Origin: Escherichia coli
GTDB taxonomy: Bacteria > Pseudomonadota > Gammaproteobacteria > Enterobacterales > Enterobacteriaceae
DNA: 64,000 bases
Direction: 5' to 3' (one strand)
NCBI RefSeq assembly: GCF_030013595.1
Contig: NZ_CP122768.1
Shown: piece after piece, positions 47,025 through 60,195 of the stretch
How positions within the stretch are numbered: the first letter of the stretch is position 1
How the letters are laid out: each line of letters begins with the position of its first letter
Position numbers and translations under genes: made by a program
The notes under the pieces: generated by a model
Databases searched by the model: none
What the model was told of the DNA's origin: nothing
What the model saw: only the letters and a program-made list of their open reading frames with translations

Positions 47025-49337
47025 TCAATACAACTCATCAAGTTTTCTCATCGCTTGTTCCCGTATTGCGCGCGTCTTACCGTTAAGCGCCAGCTGCCGA
47101 ACTAAATCCAGTTCAGGGTTAACAAGCTCTAACGCCAGCAAAGGATCACGTTTCAGCCTCGCCTTTAATACATCAACTGGAAAACGGGGATTATTCATCG
47201 CCACAATCCACCACTCGGGATCAATTTCTGCCGCCAGTACTGCAGGCGGTGTGTGGCGGTTGCTAAGTGCGCCGAACTTGAAAAATGTGAGATTGCTTTT
47301 CGCCAGTGTACTCCACCATATACGATCCGGTTGTTTTGCCAGTACATCCAGTTGTGCTAACGCATCGGGGTCTAGTGCATAATATACACGTAACGCTTCG
47401 TTAACCTGCGCACGGGAACTGTTTTCCTGCCTCAGAAAAAACTTCGCCAAAATATCATTGCGTGGCGTGTTTTGCTGTAATTCCTTGAGAACAACAGCGG
47501 GTAAATTATCCCAACTAATTAATGCACTCTCTAAAAAGTCCCAGCCTTCCGAACGTATCAGAGAGGTGGCATTTAATAGCATCTGGTCATCAACTTCACC
47601 GTGGCTAATCAGCTCAGACAAAATCATATCAGCGCTGGTTTCATATGCTGCAGAATCTGCTTTCGGATTATTTTTTCGATGCGATAAAGCGCGATGCCAA
47701 ATTTTTTGTTTCATCGCCGTACTCAGATACTGATTTTTCGCCAGATTACTCCACCCCGCAGGATCGTTGAAACGTGTCAATAACCGTTGTAAAGCGGCGT
47801 CAGAGTGAATTACCTGCATATCCTGACAGCAAAAATAGGCAGGAAATTTTTTCTCCATCTTTTTAACAAAATTAAACTGTAAGTTATCTGGCAATGCTAA
47901 AAATAACACACGTATTAGATCATCGTCATTCTCGAATTTTTGGTGTAAATATACTGCTATTTTGTCACTCTCTTGTGGCGTCATCCGCAACAATTGACCA
48001 TGGTGTTTCATCTCTGCCAGCTTTGACGCTAAGCTTGTGACAACATCGTTTGATGAATCGTTCGCCAACTGCATTGCCTGATTGTAGGTGAGTTGTCCTC
48101 CAGCACCGACCTGACGAATAGAGAAATCATCACTGCGGATATAGCCATCAATAATGGATTCGGGCAATAACCACGCATCTTTATAAAGCTCCTGAATGAT
48201 CATATCCCAATCTCTTTTCGCCAGAGTCATGACGATATCCAGAGGGAGATTTTCACGTAGCGCAAGATTCAACGGACCGACACCATCAGGTAGATGACTC
48301 ATTCGCGTCATTATTTCGACAGAGAGCGGTTCACGGTCGAGCAACCCCAGAACAACAGGCTGGTAACCCAATTGCTGATCGGTCAACTCCAGAATCTCAT
48401 TGTCAGGCATATATCTCGCCATACTTGCAATCGTTTGTCCATCATTGCTATTAATAAGTTGTTTGCGTAGGTTAGCTGAAATTCCTTTAAGCCTTGGGAG
48501 AGTTCGCATTACGGCAAGATCAAATGTCGCAATGTCTCGTCCTTCAAATGCAGCAACTTTGCCTTCATCCAGCATTTGCAATTCCTGCACTAACTCAGGA
48601 GAAGGCTTAGGGCGAAACAGCGCTTCTTTTTTCATCTGATTACAGACATTCCCTGCCATGCGAATATTGCTTCGCTTAAAAATTTCTTTCAGAGCATCTT
48701 CATCATTTATTAGGCCCCAATAATATGCATCAGGATTTATTATCGCCAGCGCTTTTTTGACATTTTCAGTGTCATTTTTGTCACTCGCACGGACCATGAA
48801 TTCACTATTTGTCGAAGACGCAACAACAGGTGCAATTATGTCATTGATAAATATCCCACGCGCATTAATACTCCCCTTAATCGTAGACGGATTATCGTAA
48901 TATGAGTCGATAAATACCAGTCCACTTGCATTTATCGAACCGGTAATTAACAGTGGTGAATCCGTAACTATATTCGTTGCCGTCACATCACCGAGAATAA
49001 CCCATGGATTAGAAAGAGAGAAAGTGGAAATATTACCTTTGACTGTCAAATTGCCAAGAACAATCAATTTTTGATTACTCTCTATATTACCTTCTACCAC
49101 TAAATCGCCACGATGCACTTTCCAGTCCGATGCAGATAAACCGAAGGGGACAAGATTCACGCTACTGTTGATAGCTTGTTCAACTTGTTGTTTATCTTCA
49201 GCGGTAGCCGCAGAAAAAAATGGTTCAATATCAACTGCATTTGCAACACATCGAAGTTCCGCCTGTACTGGAAGACTCAGCATAAACAGGGGAAGTAAAC
49301 CTATCCAGCTGCAAATCCTGGGCTTAAACATATGCAC
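47025..49337 (-). CDS. ydbD: Uncharacterised protein YdbD (770 aa tracked from GTG; 768 aa from ATG at 49331)
   Basis: ORF track; signal peptide. Confidence 0.7.
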   Translation of the reverse strand: MHMFKPRICSWIGLLPLFMLSLPVQAELRCVANAVDIEPFFSAATAEDKQQVEQAINSSVNLVPFGLSASDWKVHRGDLVVEGNIESNQKLIVLGNLTVKGNISTFSLSNPWVILGDVTATNIVTDSPLLITGSINASGLVFIDSYYDNPSTIKGSINARGIFINDIIAPVVASSTNSEFMVRASDKNDTENVKKALAIINPDAYYWGLINDEDALKEIFKRSNIRMAGNVCNQMKKEALFRPKPSPELVQELQMLDEGKVAAFEGRDIATFDLAVMRTLPRLKGISANLRKQLINSNDGQTIASMARYMPDNEILELTDQQLGYQPVVLGLLDREPLSVEIMTRMSHLPDGVGPLNLALRENLPLDIVMTLAKRDWDMIIQELYKDAWLLPESIIDGYIRSDDFSIRQVGAGGQLTYNQAMQLANDSSNDVVTSLASKLAEMKHHGQLLRMTPQESDKIAVYLHQKFENDDDLIRVLFLALPDNLQFNFVKKMEKKFPAYFCCQDMQVIHSDAALQRLLTRFNDPAGWSNLAKNQYLSTAMKQKIWHRALSHRKNNPKADSAAYETSADMILSELISHGEVDDQMLLNATSLIRSEGWDFLESALISWDNLPAVVLKELQQNTPRNDILAKFFLRQENSSRAQVNEALRVYYALDPDALAQLDVLAKQPDRIWWSTLAKSNLTFFKFGALSNRHTPPAVLAAEIDPEWWIVAMNNPRFPVDVLKARLKRDPLLALELVNPELDLVRQLALNGKTRAIREQAMRKLDELY

Positions 49338-49353
49338 TCCATGCCATTAAAAA

Positions 49354-50062
49354 AGAATAAATATCCTCCGGCATAGCCGGAGGTTTTTCAAATGCGCCTG
49401 TAAGGCTCTGTTACCAGCCGCGCCCTAACAGGCGCATACGATCTGACATTTGCATTCAACTTCGTTACTTACGGCCCGTAAACGGGCTGCCCGGATATGG
49501 AATCGATAACTGCTCCCCCATTTTATCCTCTTCAAGCTGGTGCTTTATGTAGTCCTGTATCTTCGCCGTGTTCTTACCCACCGTATCGACATAGTACCCT
49601 CGGCACCAGAACTCCCTGTTTCTGTATTTGAATTTCAAATCCCCAAACTGCTCGTAAAGCATCAGACTGCTTTTCCCTTTCAGATATCCCATAAAGCCGG
49701 ATACGCTCATTTTGGGTGGGATTTCCACAAGCATATGGATATGATCTGCGCAGCACTCTGCTTCCAGAATCCGTACGCTTTTCCACTCACACAGCTTTCT
49801 CAAAATACTGCCTATCGCCCTACGCTTCTCTCCGTAAAACGCCAGTCTTCGGTATTTCGGCGCAAAAACTATGTGATATTTACAGTTCCAGCGGGTGTGC
49901 GCTAAGCTCTTTTCGTCCCCCATTGGGACCCCCTTTTGATTTCTTGTTTGACACTTGCAGTTGCCAGACCGCAAGGTGTTTTAACAAATCAAAAGGGGTT
50001 TTAATAACTGGCTCAAAGCTGAAAGCTTTCCGGAACCCCCAGCCTAGCTGGGGGTTTTCTGT
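49354..50062 (-). mobile_element. IS200 (IS200/IS605 family), ~709 bp; boundaries approximate
   Basis: Contains tnpA; LE perfect hairpin AACCCCCAGC-CTA-GCTGGGGGTT at 50034-50056; RE hairpin CCTCCGGCATAGCCGGAGG at ~49365-49383. Confidence 0.8.
49465..49923 (-). CDS. tnpA: IS200 transposase TnpA (Y1/HUH), 152 aa
   Basis: MGDEKSLAHTRWNCKYHIVFAPKYRR.. with HxH motif (ADHIHMLVEIPP); inside tracked ORF 49465..49974. Confidence 0.85.
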   Translation of the reverse strand: MGDEKSLAHTRWNCKYHIVFAPKYRRLAFYGEKRRAIGSILRKLCEWKSVRILEAECCADHIHMLVEIPPKMSVSGFMGYLKGKSSLMLYEQFGDLKFKYRNREFWCRGYYVDTVGKNTAKIQDYIKHQLEEDKMGEQLSIPYPGSPFTGRK

Positions 50063-50145
50063 GCACAAATAAAAAACCGCAACCTGTATCAGCGTTGCGG
50101 TTTGTGTATCACATGCTAAAAATTAGAACGTCCAGCATCAGGACG

Positions 50146-50736
50146 TTACTGTTTCGGTCGCAGATTCTCATCAAATACCAGGCGCTGCCTGCCAGGTTCA
50201 ACTTCCCGCAATGGCTCGACTTGATGTAACGTCTGCTTACAGCGTGTCACCAGCACCTGGTACTCATGCGCACCCTGCTTTTTCCATGCCAACTCCTGCT
50301 CACTGAGTTCACGAATCGCTTTCGCCGGGCTGCCGACAATCAGGTAATTAGCTGGCATTTCTGCTTTGGCTTTCACAAATGCGGATGCGCCAACAATGCT
50401 GTTCTCGCCAATCACCGCACCGTCTATCACTACCGCGTTCATTCCCACTAATGCATTGCGGCGGATAATGCAGCCGTGAAGGATAGCGCTATGACCAATA
50501 TGTCCATCTTCTTCCACGACAGTATCCTGCTCGGGAAAACCGTGCATAACGCAATTATCCTGAATGTTCGCGCCATCTTTCACCACGATACGACCAAAAT
50601 CGCCACGCAGGCTGGCATTTGGCCCAACGTAAACACCCTTGCCGAGAATAACATCGCCGATCAATACCGCTGTCGGATGAACAAAACTCTCTTCTGGCAC
50701 AACCGGAGTCAGACCGTCTATCTGATAAATTGGCAT
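50146..50736 (-). CDS. paaY: Phenylacetic acid degradation protein PaaY (hexapeptide-repeat), 196 aa
   Basis: ORF track; left-handed beta-helix repeats. Confidence 0.8.
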
Positions 50737-50850
50737 AACGCGTCCTGTTCAATATTCAAGCCGCCAAAACGTTGAAAATACAGGCTTCCCGGCGCAGGCA
50801 GTTCACCGACCGAGGTTTCACCTTTTTCACTAACGAACGCTAAAGCAGCA
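50737..50850 (-). pseudogene. paaX: Probable 3' remnant of paaX
   Basis: Minus-frame coding potential immediately upstream of and overlapping paaY start; inferred from K-12 paaXY arrangement only. Confidence 0.3.
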
Positions 50851-50852
50851 GG

Positions 50853-51077
50853 CGCTACGCGCTGATAAAGTTTGCCGATAAAGGTTTGGTGGTCGCGCAA
50901 TATATTCGTAACCGTCGTCTCGATTTTTGTGCTGATGCGATTCGCCATGCCGCAGATGATGAAAAACTGGCAGGTATTGGCTTTCATTGGGGATTTTCCG
51001 ATCAGAGTCATTTTTCAACGGTATTTAAGCAACGCTTTGGGATGACGCCAGGCGAGTATCGACGTAAATTCCGCTAA
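50853..51077 (+). pseudogene. feaR: 3' remnant of AraC-family regulator gene feaR
   Basis: Plus frame encodes only the AraC-type C-terminal HTH (..IGFHWGFSDQSHFSTVFKQRFGMTPGEYRRKFR), open from a stop at ~50850, no plausible N-terminus. Confidence 0.5.
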
Positions 51078-51248
51078 CTAATTCGCGTTGCATGTACAGC
51101 AACGCGAATTAGTTAAAACAGATATTTGACTATGCATTTTTCAGGGCGAAAGGCAATTTGACAGGAATTTTTGAATATTCACCTTGTTTCCGGAAAATAG
51201 AATAATCGCCTTCTCCTGTAGCGTTATCCCGATATTGCGGTTTTGCTA

Positions 51249-51575
51249 TTAAAATTTTCGCACCCATTTACCGTTTATCCCTTGTACATATTCCCCCGGT
51301 TTAGCCCGAGCTACGAGCTTTTGCCCGGCGAGTTTCGCGATATCATCTACCGAGACATTATTTTGCTTTGCCAGTTGTTGGTAACTCGCTTTACGTTCGG
51401 CATTAATGTCGTTTACTAATTTCTCTGTTTCAGCATCTGTTTTCAGCGCAACCAGATAACCATAAAATGTTTCCCCTACCCGCCCCTGAGTTCTGGCTTC
51501 ATCCAGAGTCAATGCCATTACATTGCTGCTTACAAGCCCAACAAGAAACGCACAAAGAAGTAATGTTTTCTTCAT
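51249..51575 (-). CDS. ydbL: DUF1318 periplasmic protein YdbL, 108 aa
   Basis: Start MMKKTLLLCAF.. inside tracked ORF 51249..51656. Confidence 0.7.
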   Translation of the reverse strand: MKKTLLLCAFLVGLVSSNVMALTLDEARTQGRVGETFYGYLVALKTDAETEKLVNDINAERKASYQQLAKQNNVSVDDIAKLAGQKLVARAKPGEYVQGINGKWVRKF

Positions 51576-51582
51576 CATCGCC

Positions 51583-51768
51583 TCAGAAAAGATCGCTACG
51601 AGTCTCAAGCAGCTCTTCGACATCTTTGTCTGCCTTGATGATGATCTCATGCTCAATTTTAACGTTCATATTGATAGTGATCGGTTCCTTAGGTGCAGCG
51701 ACTTCAATGCGAGGCGTACAGCCAACCAGCATAAAAGATGACGTCAACGCAGCCAGTAAAATTTTCAT
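51583..51768 (-). CDS. ynbE: Lipoprotein YnbE, 61 aa
   Basis: ORF track; lipobox LVGC. Confidence 0.7.
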   Translation of the reverse strand: MKILLAALTSSFMLVGCTPRIEVAAPKEPITINMNVKIEHEIIIKADKDVEELLETRSDLF

Positions 51769-54404
51769 TGTTTTTCCTCACACTCTTTTCCTTGCGGACA
51801 GTCATTTCCCGGCAGACGTGCGTTCTGCTCCAACCATGCCTGGAGATTATCGCCAAAGCGTAAACTGCGCCACAGCGTAAAAATATTCTCTTCATGATGG
51901 TAATTAAGGTTTACCGTACCGCTTTTACCATCAACGCGACTGGTACCTGTAATGTTGGCCTGCATGGTTAATAAACCGAGATTATCTAAGTTAATTTTTG
52001 TCGATGAACGGCTAATTTCCATATAGCGCAACCAGTTAATTGCTGAACCCGCAGTCATATTATCTTTTACCACCGCATCAGCAGTGTCTTTATCCAGCCG
52101 CAAGGTCATTGGCCCACTATTTGCCAGCCAGCCATCTTTCACTATCCATTTTTCATTGTTTAGCCATAACGGCAATGCACCACTAAATGCCCCGGACATG
52201 GCGAATTGTTTCGGATTGACGGCGCTAACCAGTTCGCTGGATGAGAGATTATTCAGCCGCAACAGCGCCGGGTCATGTTGCGGCATGCGTAATTGTTTCA
52301 TCAGCACGTTACCGCCTAACACATCGACGCTAACATCAGTCAACAGCAATGGTTCTTCTTCTGTCCACGGATAGCGCCCTTGCAAATCAGCCGTAATATT
52401 TTTCGCTGTCACCAGATTAATCACTTCGGCAATTCGCAACGTAACGGGGCCGCGAGTCCCCAGATGCCAGGCTCCATCGGCAAAACGGAAAGGCAGGACA
52501 AAATCGACACCGTTAACCTGATTATCTGGCATCCAGGCACTACCGCCTTTCAACACGCCGTGCCCTCCCGCGCGGAATCCTTGTTCAGGCGCAGCAGAAA
52601 ATGCAACCTGAGCATACAGTTCACCATCGCGTAAGTTCATCTTCCAGTCGGGTGGCACCAGCGGCTGGAATACAGTCAGTGATTGTTTAGGCCACCAGGC
52701 GTTACCGCGCAGACGAATACCGTCCCAGCGACCATTTACCCGAACCGGGCCAATCTCACCAGCATGTAAATCGCCTTTAAAGAGGAAATACGTCGGATCG
52801 CGTCCATCGACGCTAAATTTTAAGGTTGATGGCGGTAACACACTGCCGCCAGTGAACAGCGTTTGCCCGGCGTCCAGTGACAGCGCGCCGCTAAAGGAGG
52901 GATGCTGTGCGTCACGTACCCAGACGACGGGCTTGTCGAGAATTAGTCGCGGCTTTTCTACCGTCATCGTACCGTATTGTAACTGGTCGAAACCGGTGGA
53001 GAGATCGGTCAGCGTAATCGTGCTGTCATGCCACTCACCCTTTCCTGCGACATCCCAGGTGGCATTCATCGGTGTAAAACTGCCTTTTCCCCAGTAGCGC
53101 CACTGCCAGCGGCCAGCGTCAGGGAGAAAATCATTCGCCAGTCCATCCATATGCAGCACGAAATCGCCCAGTTCATTTTCATGCGCCTGCAAAATGGCCT
53201 GCAAACGTCCGTCAACACCACGTTGGGTGACTTTTACACCCGCTAAAGGCCAGCGGATTTCATCGATGTCCAGCGAATCAATGACTCTTCCCTTTGAACG
53301 AAGTAACGCGCCAGGCTCAAAGGCCAGCGTTGGGTCAGTCAGACTTCCGCTTAGCTTCGCAGGTAAACGGGCATATAAAATGAGGTCCGCCTGTTTCGCT
53401 TCACCGGTCAGCTGCAGAGGCAGCTGGCTGTTATCCATGCTTAATTTTCCTGGGCCAAAATTAAGCACCGCGTTGCCTTTACCCGCTTGCCCCTGGGTCA
53501 GCACACTCAGTCGTCCGCTGACCAGAGCGTTCTCGAGCCCTGCCTGCCAGTTGTCGACTTTGACACCCAGTCTGCCACTCAAAGGAAAACCTGCATACGG
53601 CCAGCTCCAGCGACCATCGCTTACAGTCAATTGTTGGCGAGTAATTTGCCACGGCAAATCGAGCAACGGATCGCCATTATCCCGTGCCAGCACAATCAAT
53701 TGCCCGCTATTTTCCTGCCAGTCCAGCTCGGCATCCACCAGTGAAGGCTCCTGCGGCAAGTTTAACGTCGCAGTAGCATGACCACTTACCGGAAGTCCAT
53801 CCGGCACGAGCGGCATAGTAAATTCCCCCACCAGTTTTATCGGTGGCTGATTTTCAAACGCGGCGACATTCAGTTCGCTGACTGTAAGTTGTTGCCCTTT
53901 AAGCTGGCCTTGAAATTTAACTTTTTCGCCCTGATAACGCAGTTGCTGGATATCAGAGGTTAACGCGAGAGAGAGTTTTCCCTGCCACTCCTGCCAGGGA
54001 GAAAAAATCAGTTTATCGATATTGATCCAGGTGTTAGGCAACATGGCCTGCCACTGCGCGAGGGTTTTTGGAGCGGCAGGCGATTGCTCCGTCTGCGGCA
54101 ATTTCGCCAGACAAGCAGAATCAAGTTCTACCGTGCCGACGTTCAATAACCAGCGGCTCGGATGTGAAAGGCTGGCGTTGGTGATATGCGCAAGCTGACA
54201 ATCTCCCACCAGATAACGGAGATCGGGAATGATTAAACCTTTACGCGTAATGCGTGGGCTTTCATCTAATGCAATACGTGTCCCGAGCGGTAGCCAGATG
54301 CCCGCCAGCGTGGGAACCCACAAGCCGAGCGTCATCAGCAGCGTCAACGGCACAAGAATAATCAGTAATAACAGCGCGAGAACGGCTTTATATTTACCCA
54401 GCAT
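51765..54404 (-). CDS. ydbH: AsmA-like protein YdbH, 879 aa
   Basis: ORF track; N-terminal TM anchor. Confidence 0.8.
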   Translation of the reverse strand: MLGKYKAVLALLLLIILVPLTLLMTLGLWVPTLAGIWLPLGTRIALDESPRITRKGLIIPDLRYLVGDCQLAHITNASLSHPSRWLLNVGTVELDSACLAKLPQTEQSPAAPKTLAQWQAMLPNTWINIDKLIFSPWQEWQGKLSLALTSDIQQLRYQGEKVKFQGQLKGQQLTVSELNVAAFENQPPIKLVGEFTMPLVPDGLPVSGHATATLNLPQEPSLVDAELDWQENSGQLIVLARDNGDPLLDLPWQITRQQLTVSDGRWSWPYAGFPLSGRLGVKVDNWQAGLENALVSGRLSVLTQGQAGKGNAVLNFGPGKLSMDNSQLPLQLTGEAKQADLILYARLPAKLSGSLTDPTLAFEPGALLRSKGRVIDSLDIDEIRWPLAGVKVTQRGVDGRLQAILQAHENELGDFVLHMDGLANDFLPDAGRWQWRYWGKGSFTPMNATWDVAGKGEWHDSTITLTDLSTGFDQLQYGTMTVEKPRLILDKPVVWVRDAQHPSFSGALSLDAGQTLFTGGSVLPPSTLKFSVDGRDPTYFLFKGDLHAGEIGPVRVNGRWDGIRLRGNAWWPKQSLTVFQPLVPPDWKMNLRDGELYAQVAFSAAPEQGFRAGGHGVLKGGSAWMPDNQVNGVDFVLPFRFADGAWHLGTRGPVTLRIAEVINLVTAKNITADLQGRYPWTEEEPLLLTDVSVDVLGGNVLMKQLRMPQHDPALLRLNNLSSSELVSAVNPKQFAMSGAFSGALPLWLNNEKWIVKDGWLANSGPMTLRLDKDTADAVVKDNMTAGSAINWLRYMEISRSSTKINLDNLGLLTMQANITGTSRVDGKSGTVNLNYHHEENIFTLWRSLRFGDNLQAWLEQNARLPGNDCPQGKECEEKQ

Positions 54405-54611
54405 GGGTAGTTAATATCCTGATTTAGCGAAAAATTAAGCATTCAATACGGGTATTGTGGCATGTTTAACCGTTCAGTTGAAGGTTGCGCCTACACTAAG
54501 CATAGTTGTTGATGAATTTTTCAATATCGCCATAGCTTTCAATTATATTTGAAATTTTGTAAAATATTTTTAGTAGCTTAAATGTGATTCAACATCACTG
54601 GAGAAAGTCTT

Positions 54612-55601
54612 ATGAAACTCGCCGTTTATAGCACAAAACAGTACGACAAGAAGTACCTGCAACAGGTGAACGAGTCCTTTGGCTTTGAGCTGGAATTTTT
54701 TGACTTTCTGCTGACGGAAAAAACCGCTAAAACTGCCAATGGCTGCGAAGCGGTATGTATTTTCGTAAACGATGACGGCAGCCGCCCGGTGCTGGAAGAG
54801 CTGAAAAAGCACGGCGTTAAATATATCGCCCTGCGCTGTGCCGGTTTCAATAACGTCGACCTTGACGCGGCAAAAGAACTGGGGCTGAAAGTAGTCCGTG
54901 TTCCAGCCTATGATCCAGAAGCCGTTGCTGAACACGCCATCGGTATGATGATGACGCTGAACCGCCGTATTCATCGCGCGTATCAGCGTACTCGTGACGC
55001 CAACTTCTCTCTGGAAGGTCTGACCGGCTTTACTATGTATGGCAAAACGGCAGGCGTTATCGGTACCGGTAAAATCGGTGTGGCGATGCTGCGCATTCTG
55101 AAAGGTTTTGGTATGCGTCTGCTGGCGTTCGATCCGTATCCAAGTGCGGCGGCACTGGAACTCGGTGTGGAGTATGTCGATCTGCCAACCCTGTTCTCTG
55201 AATCAGACGTTATCTCTCTGCACTGCCCGCTGACACCGGAAAACTACCATCTGTTGAACGAAGCCGCCTTCGATCAGATGAAAAATGGCGTGATGATCGT
55301 CAATACCAGTCGCGGTGCATTGATTGATTCTCAGGCGGCAATTGAAGCGCTGAAAAATCAGAAAATTGGTTCGTTGGGTATGGACGTGTATGAGAACGAA
55401 CGCGATCTGTTCTTTGAAGACAAATCCAACGACGTGATCCAGGATGACGTGTTCCGTCGTCTGTCTGCCTGCCACAACGTGCTGTTTACCGGGCACCAGG
55501 CATTCCTGACAGCAGAAGCACTGACCAGTATTTCTCAGACTACGCTGCAAAACTTAAGCAATCTGGAAAAAGGCGAAACCTGCCCGAACGAACTGGTTTA
55601 A
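54612..55601 (+). CDS. ldhA: D-lactate dehydrogenase, 329 aa
   Basis: ORF track; 2-hydroxyacid dehydrogenase motifs. Confidence 0.9.
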   Translation: MKLAVYSTKQYDKKYLQQVNESFGFELEFFDFLLTEKTAKTANGCEAVCIFVNDDGSRPVLEELKKHGVKYIALRCAGFNNVDLDAAKELGLKVVRVPAYDPEAVAEHAIGMMMTLNRRIHRAYQRTRDANFSLEGLTGFTMYGKTAGVIGTGKIGVAMLRILKGFGMRLLAFDPYPSAAALELGVEYVDLPTLFSESDVISLHCPLTPENYHLLNEAAFDQMKNGVMIVNTSRGALIDSQAAIEALKNQKIGSLGMDVYENERDLFFEDKSNDVIQDDVFRRLSACHNVLFTGHQAFLTAEALTSISQTTLQNLSNLEKGETCPNELV

Positions 55602-55699
55602 TCTTGCCGCTCCCCTGCATTCCAGGGGAGCTGATTCAGATAATCCCCAATGACCTTTCATCCTCTATTCTTAAAATAGTCCTGAGTCAGAAACTGTAA

Positions 55700-56134
55700 T
55701 TGAGAACCACAATGAAGAAAGTAGCCGCGTTTGTTGCGCTAAGCCTGCTGATAGCGGGATGTGTAAGTAATGACAAAATTGCTGTAACCCCAGAACAGCT
55801 ACAGCATCATCGCTTTGTGCTGGAAAGCGTAAACGGTAAGCCCGTGACCAGCGATAAAAATCCGCCAGAAATCAGCTTTGGTGAAAAGATGATGATTTCC
55901 GGCAGCATGTGTAACCGCTTTAGCGGTGAAGGCAAACTGTCTAATGGTGAACTGACAGCCAAAGGGCTGGCAATGACCCGTATGATGTGCGCTAACCCGC
56001 AGCTTAATGAACTCGATAACACCATTAGCGAAATGCTGAAAGAAGGTGCACAAGTGGATCTGACCGCGAACCAGTTAACGCTGGCGACCGCGAAACAGAC
56101 ATTAACTTATAAGCTGGCGGATTTAATGAATTAA
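55700..56134 (+). CDS. hslJ: Heat-shock lipoprotein HslJ
   Basis: ORF track; lipobox IAGC. Confidence 0.8.
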   Translation: MRTTMKKVAAFVALSLLIAGCVSNDKIAVTPEQLQHHRFVLESVNGKPVTSDKNPPEISFGEKMMISGSMCNRFSGEGKLSNGELTAKGLAMTRMMCANPQLNELDNTISEMLKEGAQVDLTANQLTLATAKQTLTYKLADLMN

Positions 56135-56397
56135 TAGCTGCCACAGCTCCCGGCGGCAAGTGACTGTTCGCTACAGCGTTTGCCGTTGGGTAATGCACAC
56201 ATCCCAATCGCCGTACCATCCAGTTGACGGGCAACAGAAAGCGAACCGCCGATCATTGCACAACTTGCTTCTCCACTACTGGACATCGACGCTTTTAAAC
56301 CTGGCGCTACGTGCGCCGCAGTCGCCTGCTGAACAGGTTCACTACTACACGCCGACAATAATAAAGCGGCACACCCTACCCAAAACGCTGCTCGCAT
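56131..56397 (-). CDS. ydbJ: Lipoprotein YdbJ, 88 aa
   Basis: ORF track. Confidence 0.65.
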   Translation of the reverse strand: MRAAFWVGCAALLLSACSSEPVQQATAAHVAPGLKASMSSSGEASCAMIGGSLSVARQLDGTAIGMCALPNGKRCSEQSLAAGSCGSY

Positions 56398-56670
56398 CTT
56401 TTCTTCCTCTGATCTTCAAGCCAAACGACACCGCCATAAATAATAGGCAGCACAGAGGGCGACGTCGAGAGCTGTCCTGCGCGTTGCCCCGCATTTTTAC
56501 TTTTTTATGGCTATTTTTTTGCCCTCTGTTTGATCAAAACATTCATTACGCTGATGTGGGGGACACAAAAGCGAAAATGCAGAAGAAAGCCATTTGCTAA
56601 AATTGAAGGATTACTACTGGGCGCGCAGCAATTTCGTGCGCCCCTCATTTGCGCAATGTAAGGGTGTCAT

Positions 56671-59600
56671 ATGATTACTATTGACGGTAATGGCGCGGTT
56701 GCTTCGGTGGCGTTTCGCACCAGTGAAGTTATCGCCATCTACCCTATTACCCCCAGTTCCACAATGGCAGAACAGGCTGATGCCTGGGCCGGAAACGGCT
56801 TGAAGAACGTTTGGGGAGACACACCACGCGTGGTTGAAATGCAGTCGGAAGCGGGTGCTATCGCTACCGTGCATGGCGCTTTGCAGACGGGTGCCCTTTC
56901 AACATCGTTTACGTCATCGCAGGGTTTGCTGCTGATGATCCCGACGCTGTACAAACTGGCAGGCGAACTGACGCCATTTGTCCTGCATGTAGCGGCACGT
57001 ACCGTTGCCACACATGCACTCTCTATTTTTGGCGATCATTCCGACGTTATGGCGGTGCGCCAGACGGGTTGCGCGATGTTGTGTGCGGCTAACGTCCAGG
57101 AAGCGCAAGACTTTGCTCTCATTTCGCACATCGCAACGCTGAAGAGCCGCGTGCCATTTATTCATTTCTTTGATGGTTTCCGCACGTCCCACGAAATCAA
57201 TAAAATTGTCCCGCTGGCCGATGACACTATTCTTGATCTCATGCCGCAGGCCGAAATTGATGCTCATCGCGCCCGGGCGCTCAACCCGGAACATCCGGTG
57301 ATCCGCGGTACGTCCGCCAATCCTGACACTTATTTCCAGTCTCGCGAAGCCACCAACCCGTGGTACAACGCAGTTTACGACCATGTTGAACAGGCGATGA
57401 ATGATTTCGCTGCCGCGACAGGTCGTCAGTATCAGCCGTTTGAGTATTACGGGCATCCGCAAGCGGAACGGGTGATTATCCTGATGGACTCTGCCATTGG
57501 CACCTGTGAAGAAGTCGTTGATGAATTGCTAACCCGTGGCGAAAAAGTCGGCGTGCTGAAAGTTCGCCTGTACCGTCCCTTCTCCGCCAAACACTTGCTA
57601 CAAGCTCTGCCGGGATCCGTACGCAGCGTGGCGGTACTGGACAGAACCAAAGAACCCGGTGCCCAGGCTGAACCGCTCTATCTGGATGTGATGACCGCAC
57701 TGGCAGAAGCCTTTAATAATGGCGAGCGCGAAACCCTGCCCCGTGTCATTGGTGGGCGCTATGGTCTTTCATCCAAAGAATTTGGCCCGGACTGTGTACT
57801 GGCGGTATTTGCCGAGCTCAACGCGGCTAAACCGAAAGCGCGCTTTACGGTTGGTATTTACGATGATGTGACCAATCTGTCACTGCCGTTGCCGGAAAAC
57901 ACCCTGCCAAACTCGGCGAAACTTGAAGCCTTGTTTTATGGCCTTGGTAGTGATGGCAGCGTTTCCGCGACCAAAAACAATATCAAGATTATCGGTAATT
58001 CCACGCCGTGGTACGCACAGGGCTATTTTGTTTACGACTCCAAAAAGGCGGGCGGCCTGACGGTTTCTCACCTTCGCGTGAGCGAGCAGCCGATTCGTTC
58101 CGCTTATCTGATTTCCCAGGCTGATTTTGTTGGCTGCCACCAGTTGCAGTTTATTGATAAATATCAGATGGCTGAACGTTTAAAACCTGGCGGCATTTTC
58201 CTGCTCAACACACCGTACAGCGCAGATGAAGTATGGTCGCGCTTGCCGCAGGAAGTTCAGGCCGTGTTAAACCAGAAAAAGGCGCGCTTCTATGTGATTA
58301 ACGCGGCGAAAATCGCCCGCGAATGTGGCCTGGCGGCCCGTATTAATACCGTCATGCAGATGGCTTTTTTCCATCTGACGCAAATTCTGCCTGGCGATAG
58401 CGCCCTCGCAGAATTGCAGGGTGCGATTGCCAAAAGTTACAGTAGCAAAGGTCAGGATCTGGTGGAGCGCAACTGGCAGGCTCTGGCGCTGGCGCGTGAA
58501 TCCGTAGAAGAAGTTCCGTTGCAGCCGGTTAATCCGCACAGCGCCAATCGACCGCCTGTGGTTTCCGATGCCGCTCCTGATTTCGTGAAAACCGTTACCG
58601 CGGCGATGCTCGCCGGGCTTGGTGATGCCCTCCCCGTTTCGGCGCTGCCGCCAGACGGCACCTGGCCGATGGGCACCACGCGCTGGGAAAAACGCAATAT
58701 CGCCGAAGAGATCCCCATCTGGAAAGAGGAACTCTGTACCCAATGTAACCACTGCGTCGCCGCTTGCCCACACTCAGCTATTCGCGCAAAAGTGGTACCG
58801 CCTGAAGCGATGGAAAACGCCCCTGCCAGCCTGCATTCGCTGGATGTGAAATCGCGTGATATGCGCGGGCAGAAATATGTCTTGCAGGTGGCACCGGAAG
58901 ATTGCACCGGTTGTAACCTGTGCGTCGAAGTTTGCCCGGCGAAAGACCGTCAGAATCCAGAGATTAAAGCCATCAATATGATGTCGCGGCTGGAACATGT
59001 CGAAGAAGAGAAAATCAATTACGATTTCTTCCTCAACCTGCCAGAAATCGACCGTAGCAAACTGGAACGTATTGATATTCGTACATCGCAGCTGATTACA
59101 CCGCTGTTTGAATATTCCGGTGCTTGCTCCGGTTGTGGCGAGACGCCGTATATTAAATTGCTGACTCAGCTCTATGGCGACCGGATGTTGATCGCTAACG
59201 CCACCGGCTGTTCTTCAATTTATGGCGGTAACCTGCCCTCTACACCGTATACCACCGATACCAACGGTCGTGGACCGGCATGGGCGAACTCGCTGTTTGA
59301 AGATAACGCCGAATTTGGCCTTGGTTTCCGCCTGACGGTCGATCAACACCGTGTCCGCGTGCTGCGTCTGCTGGATCAATTTGCCGATAAAATCCCGGCG
59401 GAATTACTAACTGCGTTGAAATCAGACGCCAAGCCAGAGGTTCGTCGTGAACAGGTTGCAGCTTTACGCCAGCAACTCAACGATGTTGCCGAAGCACATG
59501 AACTGCTACGTGACGCAGATGCACTGGTAGAAAAATCAATCTGGCTGATTGGTGGCGACGGCTGGGCTTACGATATCGGCTTTGGCGGTCTGGATCATGT

Positions 59601-60195
59601 ATTGAGTTTGACCGAAAACGTCAACATTCTGGTGCTGGATACGCAATGCTATTCCAATACCGGTGGTCAGGCGTCGAAAGCGACACCGCTGGGTGCAGTA
59701 ACTAAGTTTGGCGAGCATGGCAAACGTAAAGCGCGTAAAGATCTTGGCGTCAGTATGATGATGTACGGTCATGTTTATGTGGCGCAGATTTCTCTCGGCG
59801 CGCAGCTCAACCAGACGGTGAAAGCGATTCAGGAAGCGGAAGCGTATCCGGGGCCATCGCTGATCATCGCTTATAGCCCGTGTGAAGAGCATGGTTACGA
59901 TCTGGCACTCAGCCACGATCAGATGCGCCAACTCACTGCCACCGGCTTCTGGCCGCTATATCGCTTCGATCCACGTCGAGCCGATGAAGGCAAACTGCCG
60001 CTGGCACTGGATTCACGCCCGCCGTCAGAAGCACTGGAAGAAACGTTACTTCATGAGCAACGTTTCCGTCGTCTGAATTCGCAGCAGCCAGAAGTGGCAG
60101 AACAGTTATGGAAAGATGCTGCAGCTGATTTGCAAAAACGCTATGACTTCCTGGCACAAATGGCCGGAAAAGCGGAAAAAAGCAACACCGATTAA
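56671..60195 (+). CDS. ydbK: Pyruvate:flavodoxin oxidoreductase, 1174 aa
   Basis: ORF track; two 4Fe-4S ferredoxin CxxCxxCxxxCP motifs and TPP-binding region. Confidence 0.9.
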   Translation: MITIDGNGAVASVAFRTSEVIAIYPITPSSTMAEQADAWAGNGLKNVWGDTPRVVEMQSEAGAIATVHGALQTGALSTSFTSSQGLLLMIPTLYKLAGELTPFVLHVAARTVATHALSIFGDHSDVMAVRQTGCAMLCAANVQEAQDFALISHIATLKSRVPFIHFFDGFRTSHEINKIVPLADDTILDLMPQAEIDAHRARALNPEHPVIRGTSANPDTYFQSREATNPWYNAVYDHVEQAMNDFAAATGRQYQPFEYYGHPQAERVIILMDSAIGTCEEVVDELLTRGEKVGVLKVRLYRPFSAKHLLQALPGSVRSVAVLDRTKEPGAQAEPLYLDVMTALAEAFNNGERETLPRVIGGRYGLSSKEFGPDCVLAVFAELNAAKPKARFTVGIYDDVTNLSLPLPENTLPNSAKLEALFYGLGSDGSVSATKNNIKIIGNSTPWYAQGYFVYDSKKAGGLTVSHLRVSEQPIRSAYLISQADFVGCHQLQFIDKYQMAERLKPGGIFLLNTPYSADEVWSRLPQEVQAVLNQKKARFYVINAAKIARECGLAARINTVMQMAFFHLTQILPGDSALAELQGAIAKSYSSKGQDLVERNWQALALARESVEEVPLQPVNPHSANRPPVVSDAAPDFVKTVTAAMLAGLGDALPVSALPPDGTWPMGTTRWEKRNIAEEIPIWKEELCTQCNHCVAACPHSAIRAKVVPPEAMENAPASLHSLDVKSRDMRGQKYVLQVAPEDCTGCNLCVEVCPAKDRQNPEIKAINMMSRLEHVEEEKINYDFFLNLPEIDRSKLERIDIRTSQLITPLFEYSGACSGCGETPYIKLLTQLYGDRMLIANATGCSSIYGGNLPSTPYTTDTNGRGPAWANSLFEDNAEFGLGFRLTVDQHRVRVLRLLDQFADKIPAELLTALKSDAKPEVRREQVAALRQQLNDVAEAHELLRDADALVEKSIWLIGGDGWAYDIGFGGLDHVLSLTENVNILVLDTQCYSNTGGQASKATPLGAVTKFGEHGKRKARKDLGVSMMMYGHVYVAQISLGAQLNQTVKAIQEAEAYPGPSLIIAYSPCEEHGYDLALSHDQMRQLTATGFWPLYRFDPRRADEGKLPLALDSRPPSEALEETLLHEQRFRRLNSQQPEVAEQLWKDAAADLQKRYDFLAQMAGKAEKSNTD

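Follow-up and report, generated by a model that had tools for sequence, protein, structure and literature searches.

A 17.75-kb deletion scar joining paaX and feaR remnants beside an intact paaY in Escherichia coli

The intact feaRB-tynA-paaZABCDEFGHIJKXY locus is known from E. coli K-12 and W. FeaR is the AraC/XylS-family activator of tynA and feaB, and PaaX is the GntR-type repressor of the paa operons. Previous work has shown that paaX and paaY form the paaXY operon, which is driven by Px, a promoter upstream of paaX, and that a dead-end CoA thioester arising in the phenylacetate pathway is hydrolysed by PaaY (PMC9493321). Goldstone et al. called the locus a region of genomic heterogeneity and described further internal deletions (PMC4951805). 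In UPEC transcriptomes, phylogroup A/B1 isolates had significantly higher levels of tynA, feaB, and paa transcripts than all other isolates (PMC4128348), and the same genes appear in the strain-associated gene-content table of a study of UPEC in preterm infants (PMC4819403). That lineages outside A/B1, extra-intestinal ones among them, have lost this catabolic island is already apparent from this literature and from RefSeq annotation.

Here we describe the locus in a 64,000-nucleotide stretch of E. coli DNA (contig NZ_CP122768.1), hereafter the window. A sequence-only reading of the window had noted a paaX-like fragment directly upstream of paaY, joined to the 3' end of an AraC-family gene, and had interpreted the join as the scar of a single deletion. 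The observation is confirmed and its interpretation supported, with numbers that were slightly off. We conclude that the deletion scar is real, ordinary, and already known, being annotated in RefSeq at a locus of published variability. Because this loss is already present in the literature and in RefSeq, the scar adds nothing new on mechanism or biology.

Gene remnants and the deletion junction

The 17 K-12 proteins of the feaR-feaB-tynA-paaZ-paaA..K-paaX-paaY block were used as tblastn queries against the whole window. Apart from the features given below and aldA, an unrelated paralogue, no other feaR, feaB, tynA, or paa homologue was found in the window. The features of the region, with the evidence for each in brackets, are:

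50146..50736, minus strand: paaY, an intact, orphan gene for a predicted 196-aa hexapeptide-repeat thioesterase (ORF; Pfam Hexapep; annotation of strain HCP5S3_I2)
50718..50869, minus strand: paaX 3' remnant, 152 bp (tblastn; K-12 DNA alignment, 1464338..1464489; RefSeq pseudogene)
50869..50870, no strand: deletion junction (two 5'-truncated genes head to head)
50870..51077, plus strand: feaR 3' remnant, 208 bp including the stop codon (tblastn; Pfam; RefSeq pseudogene)
51075..51115, no strand: perfect 17-bp inverted repeat (loop, 7 nt) that overlaps the feaR stop codon (repeat search)
51249..51575, minus strand: ydbL (DUF1318), the first intact gene on the feaR side (ORF; Pfam DUF1318; annotation)

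As expected, the order of genes is syntenic: ynbA-D, ydbD ... paaY-paaX', then, across the junction, feaR'-ydbL-ynbE-ydbH-ldhA. The paaY gene beside the scar is intact, as the sequence-only reading had it. Its complete 196-aa ORF is 97.4% identical to K-12 PaaY over the full length (tblastn), consistent with a full-length PaaY orthologue, and HCP5S3_I2, which is identical in this region, has the gene annotated as paaY. In that strain, the nearest complete genome, the scar query region has one matching place only.

The paaX remnant consists of 2 nt of codon 267, codons 268-316, and the stop codon. It overlaps the start of paaY by 19 bp and extends for 133 bp upstream of the paaY ATG; the presence of a paaX remnant there had been noted correctly, with its extent upstream of paaY put too low at ~115 bp. 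PaaX residues 267-316 matched positions 50870..50721 (minus strand) at 96% identity (E=3e-27, tblastn), and a Pfam search of the 49-residue PaaX remnant returned no match. Only the C-terminal 50 of 316 residues align, with the N-terminal winged-helix domain and the start codon missing, and by its sequence this piece is classified as a pseudogene remnant, not a functional PaaX.

On the opposite strand, the AraC-family 3' end is indeed that of feaR, but it amounts to a 3' quarter of the gene rather than the 3' third previously claimed: 1 nt of codon 233, codons 234-301 (68 of the 301), and the stop codon. FeaR residues 234-301 matched positions 50871..51074 (plus strand) at 100% identity (E=4e-42, tblastn). 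The remnant also matched Pfam HTH_18 (1.9e-15, positions 21-80) and HTH_AraC (3.7e-13), and represents the second helix-turn-helix, the distal part of the AraC-type DNA-binding domain. A FeaR protein would combine the AraC-type helix-turn-helix with an N-terminal regulatory domain; as residues 1-233 are absent, the piece is assigned as an orthologous remnant and not as a functional FeaR.

The retained paaX and feaR sequence is 97-99% identical to K-12 at the DNA level and 96-100% at the protein level. Judged by these alignments, the PaaX and FeaR matches are far beyond chance, and we regard both fragments as true orthologous remnants of paaX and feaR. In all five carrier genomes whose annotation was examined, RefSeq lists both remnants as pseudogenes, under the names 'PaaX ... 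missing N-terminus' and 'helix-turn-helix domain-containing protein ... missing N-terminus', and the same two names recur in the match tables for the remaining carriers shown. As a side observation, the deletion has also made a 97-aa mechanical ORF at 50718..51011 (minus strand), which starts at the ATG at 51011 and fuses feaR antisense sequence in frame to the last 49 paaX codons; this ORF is putative only.

Base-by-base comparison with the K-12 parents placed the junction at 50869/50870, with paaX on one side and feaR on the other, and not at ~50850 as first estimated. Positions 50145..50869 of the window aligned with K-12 MG1655 1465062..1464338 at 98.3% identity, and positions 50867..56455 aligned with 1446588..1441000 at 98.05% identity (BLAST, DNA); the 3-base overlap of the two alignments at the junction is a BLAST extension across a mismatch. 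The K-12 alignment, which had been proposed as a check on the deletion, bears it out: both flanks are collinear and 98% identical, and one contiguous interval, K-12 1446586..1464337 (17,752 bp), is absent from the window. On the intact strain 190693 (locus L006 2248..20000), this interval measures 17,753 bp. In K-12, it comprises 698 bp of feaR, then feaB, tynA, paaZ, paaA-K, the paaK-paaX intergenic region, and 799 bp of paaX, and it includes the Px promoter. The sequence-only reading was therefore right about the loss of the phenylacetate catabolon together with tynA/feaB; its size of 15-17 kb was too small.

Collinear flanks around one contiguous gap, with breakpoints that truncate genes functional elsewhere, are the hallmarks of a deletion scar. 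Because the gap ends inside ORFs that are complete in K-12 and 190693, the difference represents a deletion here, not an insertion there.

With a slash marking the break, the paaX parent reads ...GCTGATAAA/TGTTGATAC (short form right of the break, TGTTGAT), the feaR parent reads ...TACCGAAT/GTTTGCCGAT (short form, CCGAAT/GTTTGCC), and the window reads ...GCTGATAAA/GTTTGCCGAT (short form right of the break, GTTTGCC). Microhomology at the junction had been expected; instead, in-register identity between the paaX and feaR parents there is 0 bp, unlike the product of a microhomology-mediated deletion. An AATGTT hexamer is present in both parents, but it lies 1 nt out of register with the window product: recombination at AATGTT would yield GATAAATGTTTGCC, and the window lacks that T. 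A repeat search found no direct or inverted repeat and no insertion sequence at the junction, and the sole palindrome nearby is the native feaR/ydbL hairpin. Nor does an IS or an IS end lie at the junction, where paaX directly abuts feaR, which argues against an IS-mediated adjacent deletion. The nearby IS200 (49358..50070) is on the opposite side of paaY, away from the junction.

We propose that illegitimate joining fused a point in paaX (after codon 267) to a point in feaR (before codon 234). Lost with the deletion were feaB, tynA, paaZ, paaABCDEFGHIJK, and the Px promoter, along with the 5' parts of feaR and paaX; the leftover paaX and feaR ends, having neither start codons nor promoters, are dead pseudogenes. 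The allele did not arise in this strain; it is old, most likely of single origin, and inherited or exchanged among several E. coli lineages.

Distribution and origin of the junction

A 44-mer spanning the junction was present in 258 of 5,426 complete E. coli genomes, once in each, with at least 99% identity in 257. Strains of phylogroups B2, D, and F are among the carriers, as is the EPEC reference strain E2348/69, and the junction is identical in loci L002 (HCP5S3_I2), L003, L004, and L007 (E2348/69). With a 651-bp query, coverage of at least 80% was obtained in 259 genomes, compared to the 258 having the junction 44-mer; the extra genome may have a variant junction or a nearby change. A 1,623-bp query detected the scar in the EAEC reference strain 042 (99.6% identity) and in ST648 strains (98.4%). 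Sequence was continuous across the paaX breakpoint in 3,187 (59%) of the 5,426 complete genomes and across the feaR breakpoint in 3,332 (61%). Further truncation points are seen at the locus beyond those of the window type and the ST131 type.

The flanks of the carriers differ by up to ~5-6%, each resembling its own lineage. Window paaY is 99.5% identical to that of TL20, 97.5% to that of AF39, and 94.5% to that of E2348/69, and the feaR remnant with the adjacent intergenic sequence is 100% identical to the intact strain 190693 and matches other carriers at 93.6-97.6%. On its right flank, E2348/69 is similar to ST131. For the left flank of E2348/69, the native-to-B2 comparison is with the ST131 paaY remnant, a decayed pseudogene that is ~89% identical to everything. 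Without microhomology to guide it, the same junction would hardly be expected to form twice. We therefore favour a single old event, after which the allele descended vertically and had its flanks replaced by homologous recombination. Replacement as far as the junction would follow from heteroduplex tracts ending at the heterology boundary.

The flanks are also what could suggest a sequence-directed mechanism by which the same junction arose repeatedly across lineages. Around the identical junction, the flanks are lineage-typical, with differences that start within ~20-60 bp of it, and both the likeness of the E2348/69 right flank to ST131 and the identity of the window right flank to intact 190693 would fit such recurrence. 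However, the junction offers no microhomology, repeat, insertion-sequence end, or recombinase site to direct it, 257 of the 258 carriers match the junction 44-mer at the level of at least 99% identity, and other losses of the cluster have different endpoints. Taking into account that heteroduplex tracts stopping at the heterology boundary would produce flank replacement up to the junction, we consider repeated origin very unlikely. An ancestral short state, with the fea-tynA-paa block gained by insertion in K-12-like strains, might be entertained at a locus called a region of genomic heterogeneity between core genes (PMC4951805), where ~40% of complete genomes are not continuous at the breakpoints. 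Nevertheless, the gap ends inside coding sequences that are complete in intact strains, of which only PaaX 267-316 and FeaR 234-301 are kept, and an insertion could not create the missing 5' parts of two genes. In addition, the other truncation points elsewhere (252 bp of feaR' and 329 bp of paaY' in ST131) form a pattern of independent deletions. Gain by insertion is refuted by the truncated reading frames on both sides, and we give it a negligible probability.

The small size of the fragments, and nothing else, speaks for unrelated paralogues or for a join created in assembly. The first of these was the scenario that the sequence-only reading had set against its own interpretation, and it is excluded by 96-100% protein identity and 97-99% DNA identity to K-12 paaX and feaR in native synteny. 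The junction, moreover, is identical in 258 independently assembled complete genomes. With identity values, synteny, and recurrence across assemblies all refuting them, paralogy and artefact are left with almost no probability.

We conclude with high confidence that the window carries a 17.75-kb chromosomal deletion scar with a homology-independent join, constituting an old allele shared among lineages. Two points weigh against this explanation. Two or more nested deletions leaving one junction would be indistinguishable from a single event; a single clean junction without intermediates is most simply read as one event. Furthermore, because the carrier flanks differ, a strict single origin would have to be very old or to have been followed by homologous recombination that replaced the flanks.

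The orphan paaY gene and its surroundings

With its operon partner and the Px promoter gone, paaY is orphaned, as had been claimed. The deletion has placed it ~510 bp downstream of ydbL, and it shares its strand with ydbH-ynbE-ydbL. A scan of the minus strand from the junction to paaY found no sigma-70-like site, which is weak evidence given that the scan was a crude consensus match. Any expression of paaY would need read-through or a cryptic promoter. A strong hairpin (51075..51115; RNA fold of -31.7 kcal/mol, z = -6.6), which belongs natively to the feaR/ydbL intergenic region and survived the deletion, lies between ydbL and paaY, which now point in the same direction. Neither strand has a T-run after it, so it does not qualify as a canonical intrinsic terminator. 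A 42-bp BLAST match that could have been a second copy of the hairpin proved to be this palindrome matching itself in locus L002 (HCP5S3_I2). An Rfam scan of 49300..51800 gave only the IS200-associated STnc490 and nothing in the scar.

The paaY gene is intact in the window, AF39, and TL20, and pairwise dN/dS among carriers is ~0.06-0.16. Two further readings were considered: that PaaY has a role independent of the phenylacetate pathway, to which the intact orphan gene and its low pairwise dN/dS point, and that the locus is a long-lived presence/absence polymorphism under niche-dependent selection, to which the identical junction without microhomology on lineage-typical flanks in several phylogroups points. 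The low dN/dS may largely reflect time before the deletion, and the loss of the paaY start and stop codons in E2348/69, together with its truncation in the ST131-type allele, indicates that the gene is dispensable. We regard the two readings, taken jointly, as unlikely.

Given what tynA/feaB/feaR and the paa genes are known to do, the strain is predicted not to grow on 2-phenylethylamine or on phenylacetate as its carbon source. The unique junction is also a convenient lineage marker, present in ~5% of complete E. coli genomes.

The whole stretch around paaY is a hot spot of gene loss. An IS200-family element of 713 bp (49358..50070), containing tnpA (49465..49923, minus strand; Y1 transposase by Pfam) and STnc490 (49933..50056, minus strand), replaces 1,054 bp with pdxI (ydbC) that are kept in other carriers (locus L003 4418..5471). 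This is a second, separate gene loss beside paaY, and among the loci compared it is common only to the window and the pig isolate HCP5S3_I2 (L002). The ynbG/ydbA autotransporter region, which follows paaY in K-12 (locus L001 24063..29001) and carries IS2 and IS30 insertions there, is missing from the window (50070..50146) and from the carriers L003 and L004; strain 190693 and ST131 do have an autotransporter gene. Farther away, nifJ (ydbK) is intact in the window (56671..60195, 1,174 aa). In HCP5S3_I2, nifJ (L002 14072..16651) is annotated as incomplete at the C-terminal end, with an IS4-like ISVsa5 transposase gene coming after it, so the window comes from a related but different strain.

Comparison with known alleles

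Relative to the intact K-12/W locus, the window has the same flanking genes and its retained sequence is 97-99% identical. It differs from K-12 by the absence of 17,752 bp, with the catabolic function presumably lost.

The ST131-type deletion (Ecol_AZ159, NZ_CP019008.1) resembles the window in lacking feaB, tynA, and paa and in having a 3' feaR remnant beside ydbL. It was found in 564 of the 5,426 complete genomes, ST131 included. In this allele (L005 5633..6211), a 252-bp feaR remnant is joined to a 329-bp paaY remnant, which is decayed (~89% identical, with indels). Thus, paaY is destroyed and paaX wholly lost in the ST131 type, whereas the window keeps paaY intact together with the 3' end of paaX. 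As the ST131-type allele retains more of feaR, it could not have been derived from the window allele, and we conclude that the two deletions are independent.

The closest known alleles are those of E2348/69 and 042, in which the remnant lengths and the order paaY-paaX'/feaR'-ydbL are the same as in the window where annotation was examined. Differences exist: pdxI is replaced by the IS200 element in the window, and E2348/69 has flanking SNPs and a paaY that is 94.5% identical. In E2348/69 (L007 7269..7889), the paaY ATG is changed to AAG and the stop codon to TCA, in contrast to the intact paaY of the window, and this allele has 11-13 non-synonymous differences from the others, which suggests that the orphan paaY is decaying in the E2348/69 lineage. 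RefSeq annotates a paaX'/feaR' pseudogene pair in E2348/69 (O127:H6, NC_011601.1, 1592009..1592368) with a junction sequence identical to that of the window, and in E. coli 042 (NC_017626.1) the pseudogene feature names are the same and the whole scar region is 99.6% identical to the window.
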